64,000 bases of DNA from Leptospiraceae bacterium (lineage in GTDB: Bacteria > Spirochaetota > Leptospiria > Leptospirales > Leptospiraceae). Both the position numbers and the translations under genes were made by a program. The notes under the pieces were generated by a model. That model searched no databases. It was not told the DNA's origin and worked only from the letters and a program-made list of their open reading frames with translations. The stretch is taken from the NCBI GenBank assembly GCA_024233835.1, contig JACKPC010000001.1, positions 1,477,442-1,541,441 on the forward strand, given 5' to 3'. Position 1 is the stretch's first letter. Every line of letters starts with the position of its first letter. This document shows, piece by piece, positions 3,590 through 29,403 of the stretch.

Positions 3590-3660
3590 GGAAAATACCC
3601 CTTTAAATTCAAGCTTCAGGCCAGATTAGCGTATAGGGAATTGAGGGTCAAATGGAAAAC

Positions 3661-5037
3661 TTAAGAAATTAGTTTCAGTTTTTCAGCCCAGCTTCTTACA
3701 TTACCGGCTCCTATACTTAAAAATATATCTCCTTTTTGTAATTCCTTTTGCAGTATTTGTATATCTTCATCTATCTTTCCGCTGAGAAGGCTCGTTTTTT
3801 CAGTTGGTAAGCGCTGTGCAATAAGTCCTGTATGGATGCCGGCTATGGCCTCTTCACCTGCTGAGTAAATAGGGAGAAGAAAAATTTTATCAGCCTTAAT
3901 TAGAGATTCTGCAAATTCTCGGTATAATTCTTTAGTCCGGGTATAACGATGAGGTTGGAACAGGACAATGGAACGAGAAGAATACTCTTTTTTTAATATA
4001 TTTAAAGAATTTAATACAGCACTGATTTCTGTCGGATGATGGCCGTAATCATCATAGAGTCTTACACCTTTCCAATCCCCTAAAAATTCCAGTCTGCGCT
4101 CAACTCCTTCATACAAGGAAAGGGCCTTTAAGCTGGTTTTTGTTTCTATCCCGATTTGCTTACAGGCAAGATAAGCTAAGAAAGCGTTATGTAAATAGTG
4201 TCTTCCTGGAAAGGGACAGCTTAATTCGTAAGAATTTTCATCCTCTTTAAATATAAGTTTATTTGTATATATGGAAATCCTATAATGCGGAATTCCTTCT
4301 ATTTGCTTATCATCCTCGGAGAAACTCAGGATATTTTTTTTTAGCCCGGTTTTTATTAACATATTCCTCACACCGGGATCGGAAAGGTTGACTATGGAGA
4401 GGCTATCTCCTTTATTCTCGATAAATCTGGCAAAAGCTTCGGTAAGCTTTTCTTCGGTACCATAATAGTCGAGATGGTCTCTATCAATATTACTGAGTAG
4501 TTTTATCCTGGGAGTATAGATTGAAAAGCTTCCATCCGATTCATCGGCTTCAAAAACAGCCCAATCACTATTACCGGAGCGTCCTCCCCGGTTTTGTAAA
4601 AATGGTAGATTCCCACCTACCATAATCGATATATCTTTTTTAGCATGAAGGAGGATTCGAGAAACCATAGCCGTTGTGCTGGTTTTCCCGTGGGAGCCGG
4701 CTACTGCTACGCATTTCTTTTCTTGGAATAAGTTCTGTAGTATCTCAGAACGGTGAAAGGAAGGAATTCCTCTTTCTTCTAATTTTCTATAAACCGGATG
4801 GTTCTTGCGATTTATAGCGCTGGAGTAGATAAAGTAATCCTGTTCGGAGAGAATCTTATCGGAAGGTTCCGGGCTAATTTCTGCTCCTCTCTTCTGTAAA
4901 TCCCTTACTACTTTCGAATCGTTCTTGTCGTAGCCAAAAACCCTGATTCCTCTATCTAAAAGGATGTGGGCGATAGACGACATACCGGATCCACCGATAC
5001 CGAGTAGGAATGCATTCTTATTTTCTGGAAGTTTCAT
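3661..5037 (-). CDS. murC: UDP-N-acetylmuramate--L-alanine ligase
   Basis: GIGGSGMS N-terminal motif and the Mur ligase P-loop GSHGKTSTT; sits in the dcw cluster. Confidence 0.9.
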   Translation of the reverse strand: MKLPENKNAFLLGIGGSGMSSIAHILLDRGIRVFGYDKNDSKVVRDLQKRGAEISPEPSDKILSEQDYFIYSSAINRKNHPVYRKLEERGIPSFHRSEILQNLFQEKKCVAVAGSHGKTSTTAMVSRILLHAKKDISIMVGGNLPFLQNRGGRSGNSDWAVFEADESDGSFSIYTPRIKLLSNIDRDHLDYYGTEEKLTEAFARFIENKGDSLSIVNLSDPGVRNMLIKTGLKKNILSFSEDDKQIEGIPHYRISIYTNKLIFKEDENSYELSCPFPGRHYLHNAFLAYLACKQIGIETKTSLKALSLYEGVERRLEFLGDWKGVRLYDDYGHHPTEISAVLNSLNILKKEYSSRSIVLFQPHRYTRTKELYREFAESLIKADKIFLLPIYSAGEEAIAGIHTGLIAQRLPTEKTSLLSGKIDEDIQILQKELQKGDIFLSIGAGNVRSWAEKLKLIS

Positions 5038-20437: not shown

Positions 20438-22879
20438 ATGAAAACCTCTCCAAAAGAAAAGAGAACCAGAGAAAAATTAATTGATCCGGCTTTGAAAAAA
20501 GCGGGATGGGATTTTGAAAAACAGGTTGGCATGGAAGTAAAGCTGACCGATGGGAAAATTTTAGTCAATGGCACTTTGACACGGAGAGAAGATGCCCGAT
20601 ATGCGGATTATGTTTTGTATTTCAAACCCAATATTCCTATTGCTATCATTGAAGCAAAGGAAGAAAATCAATCTGCCAGAAAGGGTTTGCAGCAGGCATT
20701 GGATTATGCTTCTATGCTGGATGTGCCCTTTGTTTTTAGCACGAATGGAAAGTCCTTTATCTTTCATGATAAAACTGTAGCCGATGGAGAAATCGAAACA
20801 GAACTATCTATGGATGAATTTCCTTCGCCAAAAGAACTCTGGGAAAAATACAAAATCTATCATGGGATAACAGAAGAAAAACAGGTAAAAGTGATTGAGC
20901 AGGACTTTTATTTTGATGGTAGCGATAGAAAGCCGAGGTATTATCAACAGGTTGCTATCAACAAAGTAATTCGAGAAATTGCCAAAGGAAAAAACCGGCT
21001 TTTGCTTGTCATGGCAACAGGAACCGGAAAGACCTATACCGCTTTTCAGATTGCGTATCGTCTCTGGAAAAATGGTAGCAAGAAAAAGATTTTGTTTTTG
21101 GCAGATAGAACCGCATTGATTGATCAGACACGCAGGGGAGATTTTAAACACTTCAAAGACAACCTGACGGTTATCAAGAAAAAAGTAATTGAGCAGGGCG
21201 GAAAACAAAGGTTAATTTCCAACAAGAAAAGAGGCATTGATTCTTCCGACAAGGCTTATGAGATTTATCTCGGTTTGTATCAGGGTTTAAGCGATGCCGA
21301 CGGAATCGAAGATGCTTATAAAGATTTTCCGAGAGATTTTTTTGATTTGATTATCGTGGATGAGTGCCATAGGGGAAGTGCCAAAGCTGATAGTGCTTGG
21401 AGAGAAATACTAACTTATTTCCAATCGGCAACCCAGATCGGTATGACCGCGACTCCTAAAGAAACAAAAAAGATTTCCAATATTGAATATTTTGGTGATC
21501 CTGTTTATACCTATTCGCTCAAACAGGGAATCAATGACGGCTTTTTAGCTCCTTATAAAGTGATTCGTTTAACGTTAAATATTGATAAGGATGGTTGGCA
21601 ACCACCGAAAGGTTATTTGGATAAAAAAGGCAAACCGGTTAAAAATAGGATCTATAACCTGAAAGATTTTGATAAAAATCTTGTAGTAGAAGAACGCAGG
21701 AAAGTAGTTGCACAAAAAATCACCGAATATCTAAAAGGCAATAAACAACGTTATGCGAAAACGATCCTTTTTTGTGTGGATATAGAACACGCCGAAGGAA
21801 TGACGACCGCACTTATCAACGCAAATGCGGACATCTGTAGATCGAATGATAAATACGTTATGCAAATTACCGGGGATAATGAGGAAGGCAAAAGGGAACT
21901 GGATAATTTTACCAATCCCGAAGAGCCATATCCCACAATTGTTACCACTTCCAAACTATTGACAACAGGAGTAGATGCAAAAACCTGTAAGGTAATTGTC
22001 TTGGATAGTAACATTCAGTCGATGACAGAGTTTAAGCAAATCATCGGTCGTGGTACGAGGATTGATGAAGATTATGATAAGAGATATTTTACAATATTAG
22101 ATTTTAGAAATGTTACCAAATTATTTGAAGATGAGGAGTTTGATGGAGAACCTGTTAAAATCAAAATTAGTACAGAAAATGAAGACCTTTCCGATTTTGA
22201 AGAGGAAGGTTCTTTGGAAAATGATAAGGATTCTTTAGAATCAGAGAAGAAAAACCCCGGTCTTATAAAAGCACATTCTTCAACAAAATCGCCTAAACCA
22301 CCACGACCACCCAAAAAAGAAAAAGTATATGTGAATGGAATTAACGTCACTCTTCTTTTGGAAAGAAATCTTTTCTTTGATAGAGAAGGAAGGCCTATTA
22401 CAGAAAGTTTGGTGGATTATACAAAACCTATCATCCAGAAGAAATTCAAAACACTCAAAGCTTTCTTGAAAAAGTGGAACTCTGTAGAAAGAAAAACCGC
22501 CATTATCAAAGAACTCGAAGCGGATGGTGTCCTTATCGAAGAGCTTAAAAAAGCTGTTGATAAGAATGTAGATATTTTTGATCTTATCTGTCATATAGCT
22601 TATGATATGCCTCCATTGACCAGAAGGGAAAGAGCGAATAACGTCAAGAAAAGAAACTACTTTACCAAGTATGGAGAAACCGCCCGCAAGGTGATAGACG
22701 CTCTGATTGATAAATATTCCGATGGTGGATTTGAAAATCTGGAAAGTGGTGAGGTTCTTTATTTAGAACCTTTTAGTGAATACGGTTCACCGATGGAAAT
22801 CATTGAAGAATTTGGTGGACTTGAGGATTATAACAAGACAATTAAAGAAATAGAAAACTATATTTATGAGGTGGCTTAA
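20438..22879 (+). CDS. hsdR: Type I restriction enzyme R subunit (EcoEI/type IB-like, 813 aa)
   Basis: N-terminal KLIDPALKKAGW restriction domain, DEAD-box helicase motifs (MATGTGKT, DECHR), C-terminal EcoEI_R_C-like domain. Confidence 0.9.
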   Translation: MKTSPKEKRTREKLIDPALKKAGWDFEKQVGMEVKLTDGKILVNGTLTRREDARYADYVLYFKPNIPIAIIEAKEENQSARKGLQQALDYASMLDVPFVFSTNGKSFIFHDKTVADGEIETELSMDEFPSPKELWEKYKIYHGITEEKQVKVIEQDFYFDGSDRKPRYYQQVAINKVIREIAKGKNRLLLVMATGTGKTYTAFQIAYRLWKNGSKKKILFLADRTALIDQTRRGDFKHFKDNLTVIKKKVIEQGGKQRLISNKKRGIDSSDKAYEIYLGLYQGLSDADGIEDAYKDFPRDFFDLIIVDECHRGSAKADSAWREILTYFQSATQIGMTATPKETKKISNIEYFGDPVYTYSLKQGINDGFLAPYKVIRLTLNIDKDGWQPPKGYLDKKGKPVKNRIYNLKDFDKNLVVEERRKVVAQKITEYLKGNKQRYAKTILFCVDIEHAEGMTTALINANADICRSNDKYVMQITGDNEEGKRELDNFTNPEEPYPTIVTTSKLLTTGVDAKTCKVIVLDSNIQSMTEFKQIIGRGTRIDEDYDKRYFTILDFRNVTKLFEDEEFDGEPVKIKISTENEDLSDFEEEGSLENDKDSLESEKKNPGLIKAHSSTKSPKPPRPPKKEKVYVNGINVTLLLERNLFFDREGRPITESLVDYTKPIIQKKFKTLKAFLKKWNSVERKTAIIKELEADGVLIEELKKAVDKNVDIFDLICHIAYDMPPLTRRERANNVKKRNYFTKYGETARKVIDALIDKYSDGGFENLESGEVLYLEPFSEYGSPMEIIEEFGGLEDYNKTIKEIENYIYEVA

Positions 22880-24315
22880 TGTCAGTTAATATTTCGGGTG
22901 TTTTAAAATCGATTCGGGATTTTATGCGTCAGGATGCAGGCTTGAACGGTGATGCACAGAGATTGGAACAACTTGGCTGGATGATTTTTTTAAAAATCTT
23001 CAGTGATAAGGATAAAGAATTACAGTTCACTTCCAATGGAAAGTATAAGTCACCCTTACCGGAAAAATATCATTGGGAGAATATTAAGAAATATGCAGAT
23101 ACCGAAAAAGCGGAAGATTTTTTAACCTTTATTGATCAGGGATTATTTAAAGATTTAAAAGAGTTGGATATAAGCACCGGAAACGAAAGAGTCAAACTTC
23201 TCAAGAATGTGTTTGAAGGAAATAATAATTATATGAAGTCCGGCACGCTTTTGAAAAAGGTAATCTACAAACTGGATGAAATTAATTTTAACAGAGCAAA
23301 GGATAAACATGTTTTTGGTGATATTTATGAAACCATGCTCAAAGAATTGCAAAGTGCGGGAAAGAGTGGAGAGTTTTATACACCGAGAGCTATAACCCAG
23401 TTTTTGACCGATATAGTAGACCCAAAAATCGGTGAAAAAGTTTTGGATCCGGCATGTGGAACCGGTGGTTTCTTATCTGCCTGTGTAGAGAAGTTGAAAA
23501 CTTTAGCAAAGACTACAAAGGAGAGAGACTCTATCCAAAAAAATATTATGGGTATAGAGTTCAAACCTCTTCCGTATATGTTAGCAGTTACGAATATGAT
23601 TTTGCACGATGTGGCTCTTCCTTCGATTGAAGAAAGGGACTCTTTGGACAAACCAGTTACGGAATACAAAGAAAAAGATCGTGTAGACATCATCCTTGCC
23701 AATCCTCCTTTTGGTGGAGTAGTGACAGAAGGATACGAAAAGAACTTTCCTTTGAACTACAGGACAAAAGAAAGTGCGGATTTGTTTCTTGTGCTATTTA
23801 TCAATCTATTGAAAGAAGGTGGACGGGCTGCTATTGTTCTACCGGATGGCTCGCTTACCGGTGATGGCGTTAAACAGCGGATACGGGAACTCTGGATGAC
23901 GAAGTGCAATTTACATACAATCATTCGGCTGCCAAATTCGGTCTTTCAGCCTTATGCTTCGGTAGCAACAAATTTATTGTTTTTTGAAAAAGGAACACCT
24001 ACAAAGGATATTTGGTATTATGAACATACCCTGCCCGAAGGTCAAAAGTCCTACAGCAAAACTAAACCCATTCAGGTGAATGAATTTGACCCGATCAAGA
24101 AGTGGTGGAATAAACGCAAAGAGAGTGAAGTTTGCTGGAAAGTCAATATCAAGGAAATCGAAGCTCGCGGTTATGACCTCGATATAAAAAACCCCAATAA
24201 AAAAGAAGAAGAGCACGAGTATACCAGCAAGGAATTAATCTCCATGCTCGGAGAATCATTTTCCAAAAGCGATAAAATTTTGAAGGTAATCCAAAAGGAA
24301 TTGAAAGTTGGATAA
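22879..24315 (+). CDS. hsdM: Type I RM N6-adenine DNA methyltransferase M subunit
   Basis: NPPFG catalytic motif and the AdoMet motif DPACGTGGFL. Start overlaps the hsdR stop (ATGA-type coupling). Confidence 0.9.
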   Translation: MSVNISGVLKSIRDFMRQDAGLNGDAQRLEQLGWMIFLKIFSDKDKELQFTSNGKYKSPLPEKYHWENIKKYADTEKAEDFLTFIDQGLFKDLKELDISTGNERVKLLKNVFEGNNNYMKSGTLLKKVIYKLDEINFNRAKDKHVFGDIYETMLKELQSAGKSGEFYTPRAITQFLTDIVDPKIGEKVLDPACGTGGFLSACVEKLKTLAKTTKERDSIQKNIMGIEFKPLPYMLAVTNMILHDVALPSIEERDSLDKPVTEYKEKDRVDIILANPPFGGVVTEGYEKNFPLNYRTKESADLFLVLFINLLKEGGRAAIVLPDGSLTGDGVKQRIRELWMTKCNLHTIIRLPNSVFQPYASVATNLLFFEKGTPTKDIWYYEHTLPEGQKSYSKTKPIQVNEFDPIKKWWNKRKESEVCWKVNIKEIEARGYDLDIKNPNKKEEEHEYTSKELISMLGESFSKSDKILKVIQKELKVG

Positions 24316-24694
24316 CCCTGCATCACAGTTTATCATTTATACCACCGAGTTGGGAGATACCCGGATCGATGTCCGAATGGAAGAAGAAACCGTCTGGCTA
24401 TCCCAAAAGCAAATGGCGGAGTTGTATCAAAAAGATGTGAGAACGGTTAATGAACATATTCAAAACATCTATTCAGAAGAAGAGCTTCTACCGGAGGCAA
24501 CTATCCGGAATTTCCGGATAGTTCAACAGGAGGGAAAAAGACAGGTTTCGCGTGATATTGACCATTATAATCTGGATATGATTCTCTCTGTCGGTTACAG
24601 GATTAAATCGTCTATTGCGACTCGTTTCCGCCAGTGGGCTACCGAAAGGCTGAGGGAATACATCATCAAAGGGAAAATAAATGTCTTTGTATAA
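24308..24694 (+). pseudogene. rhuM: RhuM-family (Fic/DOC-like) virulence-protein gene, N-terminal 128-aa fragment only
   Basis: Matches the RhuM N-terminus through LREYIIKG, then diverges (KINVFV*) where full-length RhuM continues F.MDDERLK for ~200 more residues. Confidence 0.7.
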
Positions 24695-25256
24695 AAATAA
24701 ATACCGCATCGAATCTGCCCGAAAAAAGAATTGGGATTATACCAGCCCGGCATATTATTTTATCACGATATGCACCAGGGACAGAAAACATTATTTTGGT
24801 GAAATAAAAAATGGAATCATGGAATTAAATCCTGTGGGAAAAATCATTCACGATGAATGGTACAAAACCCAATCCATGCGTCCGAATATATATTTGGATG
24901 AATTTATTATCATGCCCAACCATATTCATGGAATTATCCAAATTGATTATAAACATCATCGTAGAGACGCGTTGCATCATCGTAGAGACGCGTTGCAATG
25001 CGTCTCTACGATGATGCATTATTCGTACGTATATATCCAAAATATATCGCATATTGTCCGTGGATTTAAATCATCCTGTACCAATCGAATCCATACAGAA
25101 ATCGGTTGTGAATTTGAATGGCAATCCCGTTTTTATGATCGTGTCATCCGAACCGAACCGGAATTACATAACACACGGAAATATATAAAAAACAATCCAA
25201 AAAAATGGCAATCCGTGTATGATTCCCGTGACAGAAAACAGGAAAAAATCCAATGA
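24681..25256 (+). CDS. tnpA: IS200/IS605-family Y1 (HUH) transposase, REP-associated tyrosine transposase (RAYT)-like
   Basis: HUH motif NHIHGII and catalytic Tyr motif WQSRFYDRVIR, 191 aa. Start overlaps the rhuM fragment and the stop overlaps the hsdS start (ATGA). Confidence 0.8.
   Translation: MSLYKNKYRIESARKKNWDYTSPAYYFITICTRDRKHYFGEIKNGIMELNPVGKIIHDEWYKTQSMRPNIYLDEFIIMPNHIHGIIQIDYKHHRRDALHHRRDALQCVSTMMHYSYVYIQNISHIVRGFKSSCTNRIHTEIGCEFEWQSRFYDRVIRTEPELHNTRKYIKNNPKKWQSVYDSRDRKQEKIQ
24954..25016. repeat. 63-bp composite repeat inside tnpA: a 21-bp unit (catcatcgtagagacgcgttg) duplicated in tandem, then its inverted copy; forms a ~20-bp palindrome with one mismatch
   Basis: Read directly: 24954-24974 and 24975-24995 are identical; 24996-25016 is the reverse complement with one mismatch. 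The whole structure stays in frame (HHRRDALHHRRDALQCVSTMMH). Confidence 0.9.
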
Positions 25257-26593
25257 ATAAAAACGAATGGCGAAAGGTGAAATTGGGGGATGTGATTTCA
25301 GCACGGAATGAACGGTATAAACCTGATGACGATTATATTTCAAAGTTACAAAGGATAGATAAAATTGATTTTACTGGAAATATATTTTTATCAAACAATC
25401 CATCAAAAACGGATATGATTTTAATTAAACCGGGTGATTTTGTAATTTCAGGAATCAATGTTGCAAAAGGTGCATTAGCAGTTTATAATGGAACGGAAGA
25501 AGTATCTGCTACTATTCATTATTCTTCCTATACATTAAACGAAAAAGAATTATATTTGGATTATTTTAAAAGTTTTTTACGAAGTTCGGAATTTTTACGA
25601 TTATTACAAGAACAAATTCCCGGTGGTATTAAAACAGAAGTAAAACCAAAGCATATTTTACCTTTAGAAATTTCCCTACCTCCCTTATCCGAACAAAAGC
25701 GAATCTCAGCCAAATTGCAATCCATCCAAGCACAGCACACAGAACTTACCGCCGAAATACAAAACCAAAAATCCTATATCAAGCAACTTAAACAGGCAAT
25801 CTTGCAGGATGCTGTCACAGGAAAGCTAACAGAAGATTGGCGAAAGACCCAAGCGGGAAAAAACGCAGGCAATGCCAGAGAACTCTTGGAGCAAATCAAA
25901 GCAGAGAAAGAAAAGCTCATCGCCGAGGGCAAGATAAAAAAACAGAAACCGTTACCACCGATAAAACAGGAAGAGATACCTTTTGACTTGCCAGCGGGTT
26001 GGGTTTGGACGAGATTGGGGGTGGTGATTGATGACAAACCAAAAAATGGTTATTCACCTAAAGAAGTTAGCTATCCAACAGAAATTAAGAGCTTAAAATT
26101 AGGAGCTACAACTTGGGGAACTTTTAATTCAAATGAATACAAATATATAGATGAAGTTATTCCTAAAGAATCTCCATATTGGTTAAAAAATGGAGATATT
26201 TTAATTCAAAGAAGTAATTCTTTAGATTATGTCGGAGTGAGTGCAGTATACGATAGAGAAGATTTTCAATTTATTTATCCGGATTTAATGATGAAAATTC
26301 GTTCAGTTATTATTTCAGCTAAAAGCTTACATCTTTTGTTGTCTTCTCCTTATATGAGAAATTACTTTAGAGCAAATGCTAAAGGTGCACAAAAAACAAT
26401 GCCAAAAATTAATCAGGATATAGTTATTAATGCGTTACTCCCACTCCCACCCCTCGCCGAGCAGGAAGAAATCGTGCGGCGGGTGGATGTGTTGTTTGCT
26501 CAGGTGAAGGAGCTGGAACAGGAAGTGGAGAAACGCGAAAAGTATGCAGAAAGCTTGATGCAGGTTGTTTTAAGCGAAGCGTTGCGCGGGTGA
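25253..26593 (+). CDS. hsdS: Type I RM specificity subunit with two target-recognition domains
   Basis: Typical HsdS N-terminus (WRKVKLGDVIS) and two conserved spacer regions (LPPLSEQKRI...; LPLPPLAEQEEIVRRVD...). Confidence 0.85.
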   Translation: MNKNEWRKVKLGDVISARNERYKPDDDYISKLQRIDKIDFTGNIFLSNNPSKTDMILIKPGDFVISGINVAKGALAVYNGTEEVSATIHYSSYTLNEKELYLDYFKSFLRSSEFLRLLQEQIPGGIKTEVKPKHILPLEISLPPLSEQKRISAKLQSIQAQHTELTAEIQNQKSYIKQLKQAILQDAVTGKLTEDWRKTQAGKNAGNARELLEQIKAEKEKLIAEGKIKKQKPLPPIKQEEIPFDLPAGWVWTRLGVVIDDKPKNGYSPKEVSYPTEIKSLKLGATTWGTFNSNEYKYIDEVIPKESPYWLKNGDILIQRSNSLDYVGVSAVYDREDFQFIYPDLMMKIRSVIISAKSLHLLLSSPYMRNYFRANAKGAQKTMPKINQDIVINALLPLPPLAEQEEIVRRVDVLFAQVKELEQEVEKREKYAESLMQVVLSEALRG

Positions 26594-27541: not shown

Positions 27542-28762
27542 ATGGCTGGTCCTTCATTTCACATGCAAGCGTTCCCTGCTAACTCCTACATTATTGTAGA
27601 AGGGAAAAAAGAAGCGAACGATTTCTATATTGTCAGGGAAGGGAAGGTAGGTGTAGGAAGAGAAAACCCGGTTGTCGGTGAGGAACCTACCCAGATTTTA
27701 GGACCCGGAGACTTTTTCGGTGTGGTGGCTGCTATGAGTCAACACCCTCAAATCGAAACAGCTCGTTCTCTTACAAAAGTTTCTCTAATAGCGGTCAGTT
27801 TCGACCAGTTCGGAACCCTCATCCAGAGGAATACTCCGGTAGCCATGAAGATTATCCGCTATTTCTCTATGAAGCTACGTCAGTTTGACCAGACGATTTT
27901 ACGCCTTTCTTTTAGAAATGCCCCTGTAGATGACCTGAACCAGCTTTATCACATGGGAGAATACTACTATTCACAGGGAAATACAGAACACGCGACTTAT
28001 TCCTTTCAAGCTTACCTGAAATACATGAAGAATGGGAAGTTTTTAACCCAGGCTAAAATGAAACTTCAGGGATTAGGTCAGCCCTTTGCTACTCCTCCCA
28101 TTGATTTAACCAAGTTTAACCGCCGTTATAAAGATAATTCCATGATTTTCTGTGAGCATGAGCCCGGAAAAGAACTCTATATCATTCAAAATGGAAAAGT
28201 AAAGATTACTAAAATTGTAGATAATAATGAAGTCATGCTTGCTGTACTCCAGAAAGGGGATATTTTTGGAGAAATGGCTATTCTGGACAATGCTCCCCGC
28301 TCGGCTTCTGCAATTGCCTTCGGAGATGTGGACCTCTTAGCTATTAATAAGGCAAACTTCGAGGGAATGGTAAAAAAACAACCCCAGTTGGCGACCAAGA
28401 TTATTACCCTGCTCTCAGAACGTATCTGGCACGCTTATAAACAGCTCGCTAACCTTATGATTACCGATCCGGCAGGAAGAATTGCCGATACTCTACTTAC
28501 CCTTGTTGAGAAAAACCGTATTAAAGTTGGACCGAAAGTCGCCCATACTTACGATGTAGGTGTTCGCGATGTTCTAAAAATGGTTGGCCTGGCCGAAAAC
28601 CGGGATGAAAGAATATTTCTCGATCTTTTAGCTAAGAATAAGTTTTTAAAATTAGACCAGGGGAAAATTCGCTGTCTGGATCTTCATGAGCTGGAAAAGC
28701 TGGTGAATTATTATAAGAAAAAATCCCAGATGGAGAAAAAACTCCAGAAGAATTACCGCTAA
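27542..28762 (+). CDS. Protein with two cyclic-nucleotide-binding (CAP-effector) domains
   Basis: Two cNMP-binding cores (GDFFGVVAAM and GDIFGEMAIL) with beta-roll context. Confidence 0.75.
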   Translation: MAGPSFHMQAFPANSYIIVEGKKEANDFYIVREGKVGVGRENPVVGEEPTQILGPGDFFGVVAAMSQHPQIETARSLTKVSLIAVSFDQFGTLIQRNTPVAMKIIRYFSMKLRQFDQTILRLSFRNAPVDDLNQLYHMGEYYYSQGNTEHATYSFQAYLKYMKNGKFLTQAKMKLQGLGQPFATPPIDLTKFNRRYKDNSMIFCEHEPGKELYIIQNGKVKITKIVDNNEVMLAVLQKGDIFGEMAILDNAPRSASAIAFGDVDLLAINKANFEGMVKKQPQLATKIITLLSERIWHAYKQLANLMITDPAGRIADTLLTLVEKNRIKVGPKVAHTYDVGVRDVLKMVGLAENRDERIFLDLLAKNKFLKLDQGKIRCLDLHELEKLVNYYKKKSQMEKKLQKNYR

Positions 28763-28764
28763 AT

Positions 28765-29403
28765 CTGAAACAAGGTATCGTTTACAACTTCAAGGAAGCT
28801 TTATCCTTTTTATGTGCAAGGGATAAGGCTACAGCCGGATTAATCGATTCGGTAGGAGATTGTCGTTTTCAATCCATAGGTAACGCTTACTATACACTGA
28901 TTAAATCTGTCATTGCCCAGCAGCTCTCTCTACAGGCAGCAAGAGCCATACAGGAAAGATTATTTAAAGCCTGCGGTGTAAAACGAAAAAACACTCCTCC
29001 TTCTCCCTTAAGCCTTTTAACAATCGATGAAGAAACTTGCAGAAAACAGGGCCTTTCCCGTACAAAAACAGGAACTCTAAAACGAATTGCGGATAAATTT
29101 CATTCCGGGGAATGGACAGAAAAAAAACTCCGGACATTAGCAGATGATGAACTAAAGAAAGAGCTTTGTTCTGTGAAGGGAATCGGACCCTGGACGGCGG
29201 AAATGGTGATGATGTTTGCCCTGAACCGTCTCGATATTTTTTCGATTGGAGACCTGGGGCTTCGCCGGGGAGTTGAAAAGATCTATGGCATACCGAGAGA
29301 AAACAAATCGGAAATTGAAACTCATATAAAACGATATTCACCCTACAGGAGTATCCTTTCGTGGTATCTCTGGGAGAGTCAGGATGAAGAACCCTGGGAA
29401 TAA
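28765..29403 (+). CDS. alkA: DNA-3-methyladenine glycosylase II-like (HhH-GPD family) with no canonical start; candidate CTG start at 28765
   Basis: The frame is open from 28717. Its translation matches the AlkA C-terminal domain (VGDC, QQLS, HhH CSVKGIGPWTAEMVMMF, catalytic D in GDLGLRRG, SWYLW). There is no ATG/GTG/TTG in frame before GTG 29173, which lies inside the HhH motif. Confidence 0.6.
   Translation: MKQGIVYNFKEALSFLCARDKATAGLIDSVGDCRFQSIGNAYYTLIKSVIAQQLSLQAARAIQERLFKACGVKRKNTPPSPLSLLTIDEETCRKQGLSRTKTGTLKRIADKFHSGEWTEKKLRTLADDELKKELCSVKGIGPWTAEMVMMFALNRLDIFSIGDLGLRRGVEKIYGIPRENKSEIETHIKRYSPYRSILSWYLWESQDEEPWE

Follow-up and report, generated by a model that had tools for sequence, protein, structure and literature searches.

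A near-cognate CTG codon as the candidate start of a 3-methyladenine DNA glycosylase gene in a Leptospiraceae bacterium

A 64,000-nucleotide stretch of the genome of a Leptospiraceae bacterium (NCBI GenBank assembly GCA_024233835.1, contig JACKPC010000001.1, positions 1,477,442 to 1,541,441 of the forward strand; hereafter, the window) contains a reading frame for a DNA glycosylase of the HhH-GPD superfamily that directly follows a gene for a cyclic nucleotide monophosphate (cNMP)-binding protein. No canonical start codon in this frame fits a complete protein, and a near-cognate CTG (positions 28765 to 28767, forward strand) stands at the position where the orthologs start. On balance, we favor the reading that the frame is a separate, intact gene for a predicted glycosylase of 212 amino acids (aa) that begins at CTG 28765 and is weakly translated by coupling to the cNMP-binding gene. 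The sequence is real and the gene is intact, the CTG is positionally homologous to the GTG start of the closest orthologs, and the two genes, though conserved as a pair, are in no case fused.

An open reading frame scan of the window places a TAA stop at 28714 to 28716, followed by the open glycosylase frame (28717 to 29403). An earlier note on this DNA had claimed that the frame holds no ATG, GTG, or TTG before GTG 29173 and that this codon falls inside the helix-hairpin-helix. The list of open reading frames and a Pfam search bear out both statements: GTG 29173 is codon 153 of the 228-codon frame, and it lies within the Pfam HHH match at residues 148 to 165 (LCSVKGIGPWTAEMVMMF, positions 29158 to 29211, forward strand). 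From CTG 28765 onward, 136 codons pass without an ATG, GTG, or TTG. The length of this run is not unusual in the window, where 7 of 40 long genes have a start-free run of 132 codons or more; only its N-terminal position is unusual. The idea that the run might be a sign of selection against internal starts was rejected because of those same 7 genes. The near-cognate codons in the glycosylase frame are ATC 28723, CTG 28765, and ATC 28777, ATC being another permitted rare start; the earlier note had overlooked both ATC codons, the first of which is the start that NCBI uses. The open stretch before CTG 28765 amounts to 16 codons and is the −1 reading of the Lys/Glu/Gln-rich C terminus of the cNMP-binding protein. 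The junction reads TAT AAG AAA AAA TCC CAG ATG GAG AAA AAA CTC CAG AAG AAT TAC CGC TAA and, after this TAA, continues at CTG AAA CAA GGT ATC GTT TAC, with 2 bases between the stop and CTG 28765.

Comparison of junctions provides the main evidence for where the gene starts. The order cNMP-binding gene, then glycosylase, is kept in nine Leptospiraceae-type loci (the window, L001, L002, L004, L005, L006, L088, L089, and L090), and the two genes are separate in all nine, with a spacer of 2 to 20 nucleotides (nt) and a relative frame of 0, +1, or +2. In the two closest orthologs, a GTG start stands 3 nt past the cNMP stop (junction TAA TTT GTG in L088, P0001, 52 to 54% identity; junction TAG AAT GTG in L004, P0002, 48 to 50% identity). 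Because a stop one codon before this GTG closes the glycosylase frame in both loci, GTG is unambiguously their start. The distance from the start to the conserved Asp of an L..D motif is 20 codons in L088, in L004, and, counted from the CTG, in the window. This shared distance and the shared place after the cNMP stop make CTG 28765 the positional homolog of the orthologous GTG, from which it differs by one base change. The N termini of homologs likewise align exactly with CTG 28765. The earlier note had proposed comparing start codons with orthologous loci, and the comparison returns GTG at the CTG position in the two closest of them; among the four options which that note had listed, a CTG start is thus the best supported, as it aligns both with the homologous N termini and with the GTG of L088 and L004.

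The remaining orthologs vary in start codon and spacing. TTG is the start in L002 (spacer, 12 nt) and in L001, where it overlaps the stop of an inserted STAS gene and a spacer does not apply, while ATG is the start in L090 (16 nt), L089 (14 nt), Leptospira ainazelensis (L005, 20 nt), and L. ainlahdjerensis (L006, 20 nt). GTG or TTG starts are thus found in half of the orthologs, and most orthologous glycosylase starts have no Shine-Dalgarno (SD) motif. In L001, a Leptospiraceae metagenome-assembled genome (MAG; GCA_023150105.1), the inserted gene encodes a 102-aa STAS-domain protein (positions 3590 to 3898 of that locus) between the cNMP-binding gene and the glycosylase, and an adenylate/guanylate cyclase gene lies directly upstream of the cNMP-binding gene. 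No relatives between 54% and 100% identity were found by database search or among the matches listed from scans of metagenomes and species-representative genomes. Among the matches listed from the species-representative scan, two Leptospira species appeared as orthologous loci (48 to 49% identity), and the window's own genome was not listed. A protein-guided scan of metagenome contigs for closer relatives returned nothing above 38% identity, and a search of JGI metagenome contigs for strain variants, using an exact 28-mer just past the CTG, gave 0 matches.

Judged from its sequence, the encoded protein is a complete short HhH-GPD 3-methyladenine glycosylase of the Mag/AlkA2 type and not an AlkA equivalog. 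Its coding sequence, intact from the CTG (28765 to 29403, forward strand; 212 aa), scores 51.2 bits with Pfam PF00730 (HhH-GPD; cut-off, 26.2; E value, 1.8e-13) over profile positions 1 to 104 of 108, which places it in the superfamily. The helix-hairpin-helix is followed by a Gly/Pro-rich loop and, about 20 residues on, by a conserved Asp (LCSVKGIGPWTAEMVMMFALNRLDIFSIGDLGL); an alignment of 15 sequences shows no variation at the IGDLG Asp or at four positions of the GIGPW loop (G, I, G, and W). The predicted catalytic Asp codon (GAC, 29251 to 29253, forward strand) is that of D163 counted from the CTG, in IGDLGLRRG, and aligns with D170 of S. pombe Mag1 (chain 3s6i), which we take to be the catalytic residue of that enzyme. 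Proteins of solved structure match nearly end to end (2h56, 2e-29; 3s6i, 3.7e-25; 2yg8/2yg9, 2e-23), with query residues 15 to 205 matching residues 25 to 212 of 2h56 and query residues 5 to 205 matching residues 11 to 213 of 3s6i. A database search returned 47 homologs, the best of them 54% identical; the relatives listed are mostly 204 to 221 aa long and full-length homologs 204 to 230 aa, and 212 aa falls within the range for a single-domain enzyme (about 205 to 235 aa). A 13-bp hairpin (AGCUUUAUCCUUU / AAGGGAUAAGGCU) lies in the glycosylase coding sequence at 28797 to 28830 (forward strand), about 30 nt past the CTG; its fold z score is −2.2, 7 of 200 shuffled sequences fold as well, and it may be due to chance.

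The glycosylase shares its single-domain form, at about 210 to 230 aa, with the short Mag-type enzymes Bacillus halodurans Mag (2h56), S. pombe Mag1 (3s6i), and Deinococcus radiodurans AlkA2 (2yg8/2yg9), and the helix-hairpin-helix motif, the GIGPWT loop, and the catalytic Asp all align with theirs. It differs from them in that identity is only moderate, the gene in the window has no canonical start, and its substrate range is a prediction. With E. coli AlkA (DNA-3-methyladenine glycosylase 2) it has the HhH-GPD catalytic domain in common. However, the NCBIfam AlkA equivalog model PRK10308/NF007641 is matched with only 25.6 bits against a cut-off of 229, over profile residues 114 to 277 of 285, and a Pfam search found no AlkA N-terminal domain (PF06029) in the protein. 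The earlier note had read the frame as an AlkA-type C-terminal domain. The HhH-GPD frame and the catalytic Asp stand, but the protein is of the full length of its homologs and is not an AlkA fragment.

Initiation at CTG 28765 would yield a 212-aa protein beginning (M)KQGIVYNF.... Since the CTG lies 2 nt past the cNMP stop and no SD motif serves it, translation would most likely occur by termination-reinitiation: ribosomes that have just terminated on the cNMP-binding gene would reinitiate at the CTG, and glycosylase output would be low, as expected for CUG. None of the three candidate starts (28723, 28765, and 28777) has a usable SD motif before it; GGAG 28732 to 28735 is 29 nt upstream of the CTG, and AAGG 28772 to 28775 is 1 nt from ATC 28777. 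This absence does not settle the matter, given that an SD-like motif is present in only 18 of the 43 long open reading frames of the window (about 40%). No promoter-like or terminator-like site was found between the cNMP-binding gene and the glycosylase. In typical coupled gene pairs the overlap is 4 or 1 nt and the start is ATG or GTG, unlike in the pair in the window, and we know of no documented case of reinitiation at a CTG. Compared with known termination-reinitiation pairs, the genes in the window are co-directional with a spacer of +2 nt and no SD motif, and those of the closest orthologs have a spacer of +3 nt; both spacers are within the range of efficient reinitiation (PMC10666635, PMC6728339). 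Reinitiation requires a very short stop-start distance, a 2-nt spacer costing 5 to 70% (PMC10666635) and distances of about 20 to 38 nt abolishing it (PMC10666635, PMC6728339).

Natural CTG starts are rare but documented. Verified examples are E. coli hda and yfjD (PMC3531124) and RepFIB rep (PMC11983097), and 0.024% of genes are annotated with a CTG start (PMC11983097). Annotation often places the start of such verified genes wrongly, at a GTG or TTG farther downstream (PMC3531124, PMC11983097). In hda, yfjD, and RepFIB rep, a near-cognate CTG initiator sets low expression, and the gene in the window is a candidate for a similar arrangement. It differs from RepFIB rep, whose CTG works with a good ribosome-binding site, whereas the CTG in the window has no SD motif and lies 2 nt past an upstream stop.

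Some points weigh against initiation at CTG 28765. Initiation factor IF3 normally discriminates against CUG. The available copies of this genome are all identical and the closest relative found is only 54% identical, so that a conserved CTG and a recent change from GTG or TTG to CTG are not separable by this comparison. CUG and AUC are about equally poor initiators in E. coli, each giving about 1 to 2% (0.02 to 3%) of AUG initiation (bioRxiv 10.1101/063800). Because codon identity cannot separate CTG 28765 from ATC 28723, the start is decided by position.

We also entertain, tentatively, the stronger proposal that the CTG is a selected functional start that would keep the glycosylase scarce (about 1% of normal output) and stoichiometrically tied to the cNMP sensor. 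Its synthesis would then fall exclusively to ribosomes fresh from translating the cNMP-binding regulator. A weak start would be a plausible design, and low output might be tolerated or even favored for an alkylpurine glycosylase, because overexpression turns alkylation-repair glycosylases of yeast and bacteria into strong mutators (PMC5363859). If the proposal were true, DNA repair would be linked to cyclic nucleotides at the level of the operon and not via a fusion protein, and a potentially mutagenic alkylpurine glycosylase would be limited within a cNMP-sensor/glycosylase/sigma-54-activator-like module conserved across the Leptospiraceae.

The upstream gene (27542 to 28762, forward strand; stop TAA 28760 to 28762) encodes a protein of 406 aa that combines two cyclic-nucleotide-binding domains with a CRP-like region at its C terminus (Pfam cNMP_binding, 1.8e-42 in two stretches; NCBIfam CRP, 1.9e-28). 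Its annotated start differs by pipeline, being ATG 27542 (406 aa) in the Logan and ENA versions and 27563, the Met of MQAFPANS (399 aa), at NCBI. Near its 3' end lies the A6 tract that the earlier note had described and proposed as a −1 slip site (28718 to 28723, forward strand); the tract is present, in Lys-Lys codons, and a second A6 follows at 28736 to 28741. The C terminus of the protein (...ELEKLVNYYKKKSQMEKKLQKNYR*) is kept in its own frame among orthologs. The pattern LDQGK.xC.DLxELEKLxxxY[KR]KKxxMxxK[LI] continues through and past the A tracts, with the same end in all nine loci. The A6 tract itself is not conserved, the orthologs reading AAAAAGAAAAC or AAGAAGAAAAC.

The earlier note had left four explanations of the missing start side by side; they fare differently, and its overall reading is supported in part. 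One is that the gene is an incipient pseudogene, in which an ancestral GTG or TTG recently mutated to CTG and useful translation was lost, further damage having not yet accumulated. A single base change would explain the present state, since GTG stands at exactly the CTG position in the closest orthologs, and near-cognate starts give only about 1 to 2% of AUG initiation in E. coli (10.1101/063800); moreover, no close relative was found in which the CTG is seen to be conserved, and a change from GTG to CTG that happened very recently would leave the same picture. We nonetheless consider this history rather unlikely. The 212 codons contain no stop or frameshift, the catalytic Asp is retained, and 54 invariant columns are common to the glycosylase and six orthologs; of 56 columns that are otherwise invariant, the protein carries a change at 2 and each ortholog at 1 to 4, so that there is no excess of changes. 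The gene also belongs to a conserved, closely spaced operon, in which its last 20 nt are shared with the next gene, and the same allele is present in four assemblies. Furthermore, weak starts (GTG or TTG with no SD motif) are already found in the family, for which low expression seems normal. Of the pseudogene option, then, the one-base change of the start is possible, while signs of decay are absent. Public annotation offers another start. NCBI carries the gene as an intact 226-aa "DNA-3-methyladenine glycosylase 2 family protein" (MCB1158646.1 / MCP5499592.1) starting at ATC 28723 (positions 28723 to 28725, forward strand), which overlaps the cNMP-binding gene by 40 nt, its first 14 codons lying over the end of that gene; Prodigal-type callers report only a 76-aa fragment from GTG 29173. 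Both NCBI records begin M-PDGEKT (P0053, M-PDGEKTPEELPLNLKQG...), AUC and CUG are equally usable in E. coli (10.1101/063800), and N-terminal extensions do occur in homologs (P0004 and 229-aa Leptospira proteins). Initiation at this ATC is improbable, however. The 14-residue extension PDGEKTPEELPLN has no counterpart in any homolog aligned, and in the closest orthologs a stop one codon ahead of the start closes this frame. The ATC has no SD motif before it, and its distance of 37 nt from the cNMP stop downstream places it within translated sequence, where coupling by reinitiation works poorly (PMC10666635). The NCBI choice looks like the outcome of a longest-open-reading-frame rule and not of evidence.

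The most unusual explanation in the earlier note, a cyclic-nucleotide-regulated repair enzyme made by fusion, would require a −1 ribosomal frameshift, or A6-to-A7 phase variation, at 28718 to 28723 or 28736 to 28741, giving a cNMP-glycosylase protein of about 620 aa. The glycosylase frame is indeed the −1 frame of the cNMP-binding gene and is open over both A6 tracts, for 16 codons before the CTG. Everything else that we compared makes the fusion very unlikely. All nine loci conserve the cNMP C terminus, in the frame of the cNMP-binding gene, as far as the stop, and the A6 tracts, simply Lys-Lys codons, are interrupted in relatives. The relative frame (0, +1, or +2) and the spacer (2 to 20 nt) vary, and in L001 the STAS gene intervenes. 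In five of the eight relatives (L088, L001, L090, L089, and L006), stops occur in the −1 frame, and because L006 differs in this respect from its sister species L005, the open −1 frame is not maintained. The tract G AAA AAA falls short of a complete X XXY YYZ slippery heptamer, six A's are shorter than the tracts known to slip efficiently, and the tract is A6 in all four assemblies. No stimulatory structure lies 5 to 9 nt downstream (fold z scores of −0.11 and −0.45 after the two tracts), the only strong hairpin, at 28797 to 28830, being at least 55 nt downstream of the tracts. The locus thus has none of the slippery heptamer, the downstream structure, and the conserved frame relation with an open −1 frame that mark a programmed −1 frameshift. 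The earlier note had suggested looking for cNMP-glycosylase fusions among relatives; none occurs among the nine loci, and the architecture, at about 620 aa, is found in 0 of the 47 homologs from the database search. We also considered, and rejected, a fusion by stop codon readthrough: the glycosylase is in frame with the cNMP-binding gene in L088, L004, and L002, but this relation does not hold in the window, L089, L090, L005, and L006. Finally, a sequencing or assembly error, whether in homopolymer length or as a miscall at 28765, could mask a normal start. The longest contig with these genes measures 2.05 Mb, which suggests a long-read assembly, and long-read assemblies are prone to homopolymer errors. 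Yet three further assemblies (L085, GCA_020440905.1; L086, Logan SRR23493592; and L087, ENA ERZ27248703) match the window at 100% identity over 1983 to 2659 nt, including both A6 tracts and CTG 28765. They comprise a fragmented NCBI MAG, a Logan assembly of a Sequence Read Archive run, and an ENA k141 assembly, two of them short-read, so that other data and other assemblers agree across the whole region. The cNMP frame is, in addition, intact and conserved across both A tracts. A homopolymer error, another of the options in the earlier note, is effectively excluded, and we regard an error of either kind as extremely unlikely. In an exact-sequence look-up, the flanking proteins and the 76-aa GTG fragment matched public data of an uncultured Leptospiraceae bacterium.

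The main value of a start at CTG 28765 lies in annotation: comparison with orthologs points to this codon and neither to the 76-aa fragment nor to an ATC within the upstream gene. If confirmed, it would be a natural CTG start placed for termination-reinitiation without an SD motif, in a little-studied spirochete lineage. The locus also draws attention to the conserved pairing of a gene for a two-domain cNMP-binding protein (about 405 aa) with one for a 3-methyladenine glycosylase. It presents neither a new enzyme type nor a new recoding mechanism; it is a modest oddity, already publicly annotated as intact with another rare start.

Downstream, the glycosylase overlaps by 20 nt a gene for a 315-aa sigma-54 activator-like AAA+/HTH_8 protein without a receiver domain (29384 to 30331, forward strand). 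This gene is kept after the glycosylase in four of the nine loci (the window, L004, L002, and L088), with an overlap of 20 to 23 nt. Directly after it lies a gene for a 95-aa DUF2934 protein (30385 to 30672, forward strand), also present in other assemblies of this genome. Convergent with the operon is a gene for an 820-aa Major Vault Protein-like protein (30770 to 33232, reverse strand; MVP_shoulder, 8.7e-25; Vault_3, 1.1e-09; and an SPFH/Band_7 match). Upstream of the operon, a type I restriction-modification system occupies 20438 to 26593 on the forward strand (HsdR, 20438 to 22879; HsdM, 22879 to 24315; HsdS, 25253 to 26593), and a small open reading frame between HsdM and HsdS (24681 to 25256) has a weak match to an IS200-like Y1 transposase.

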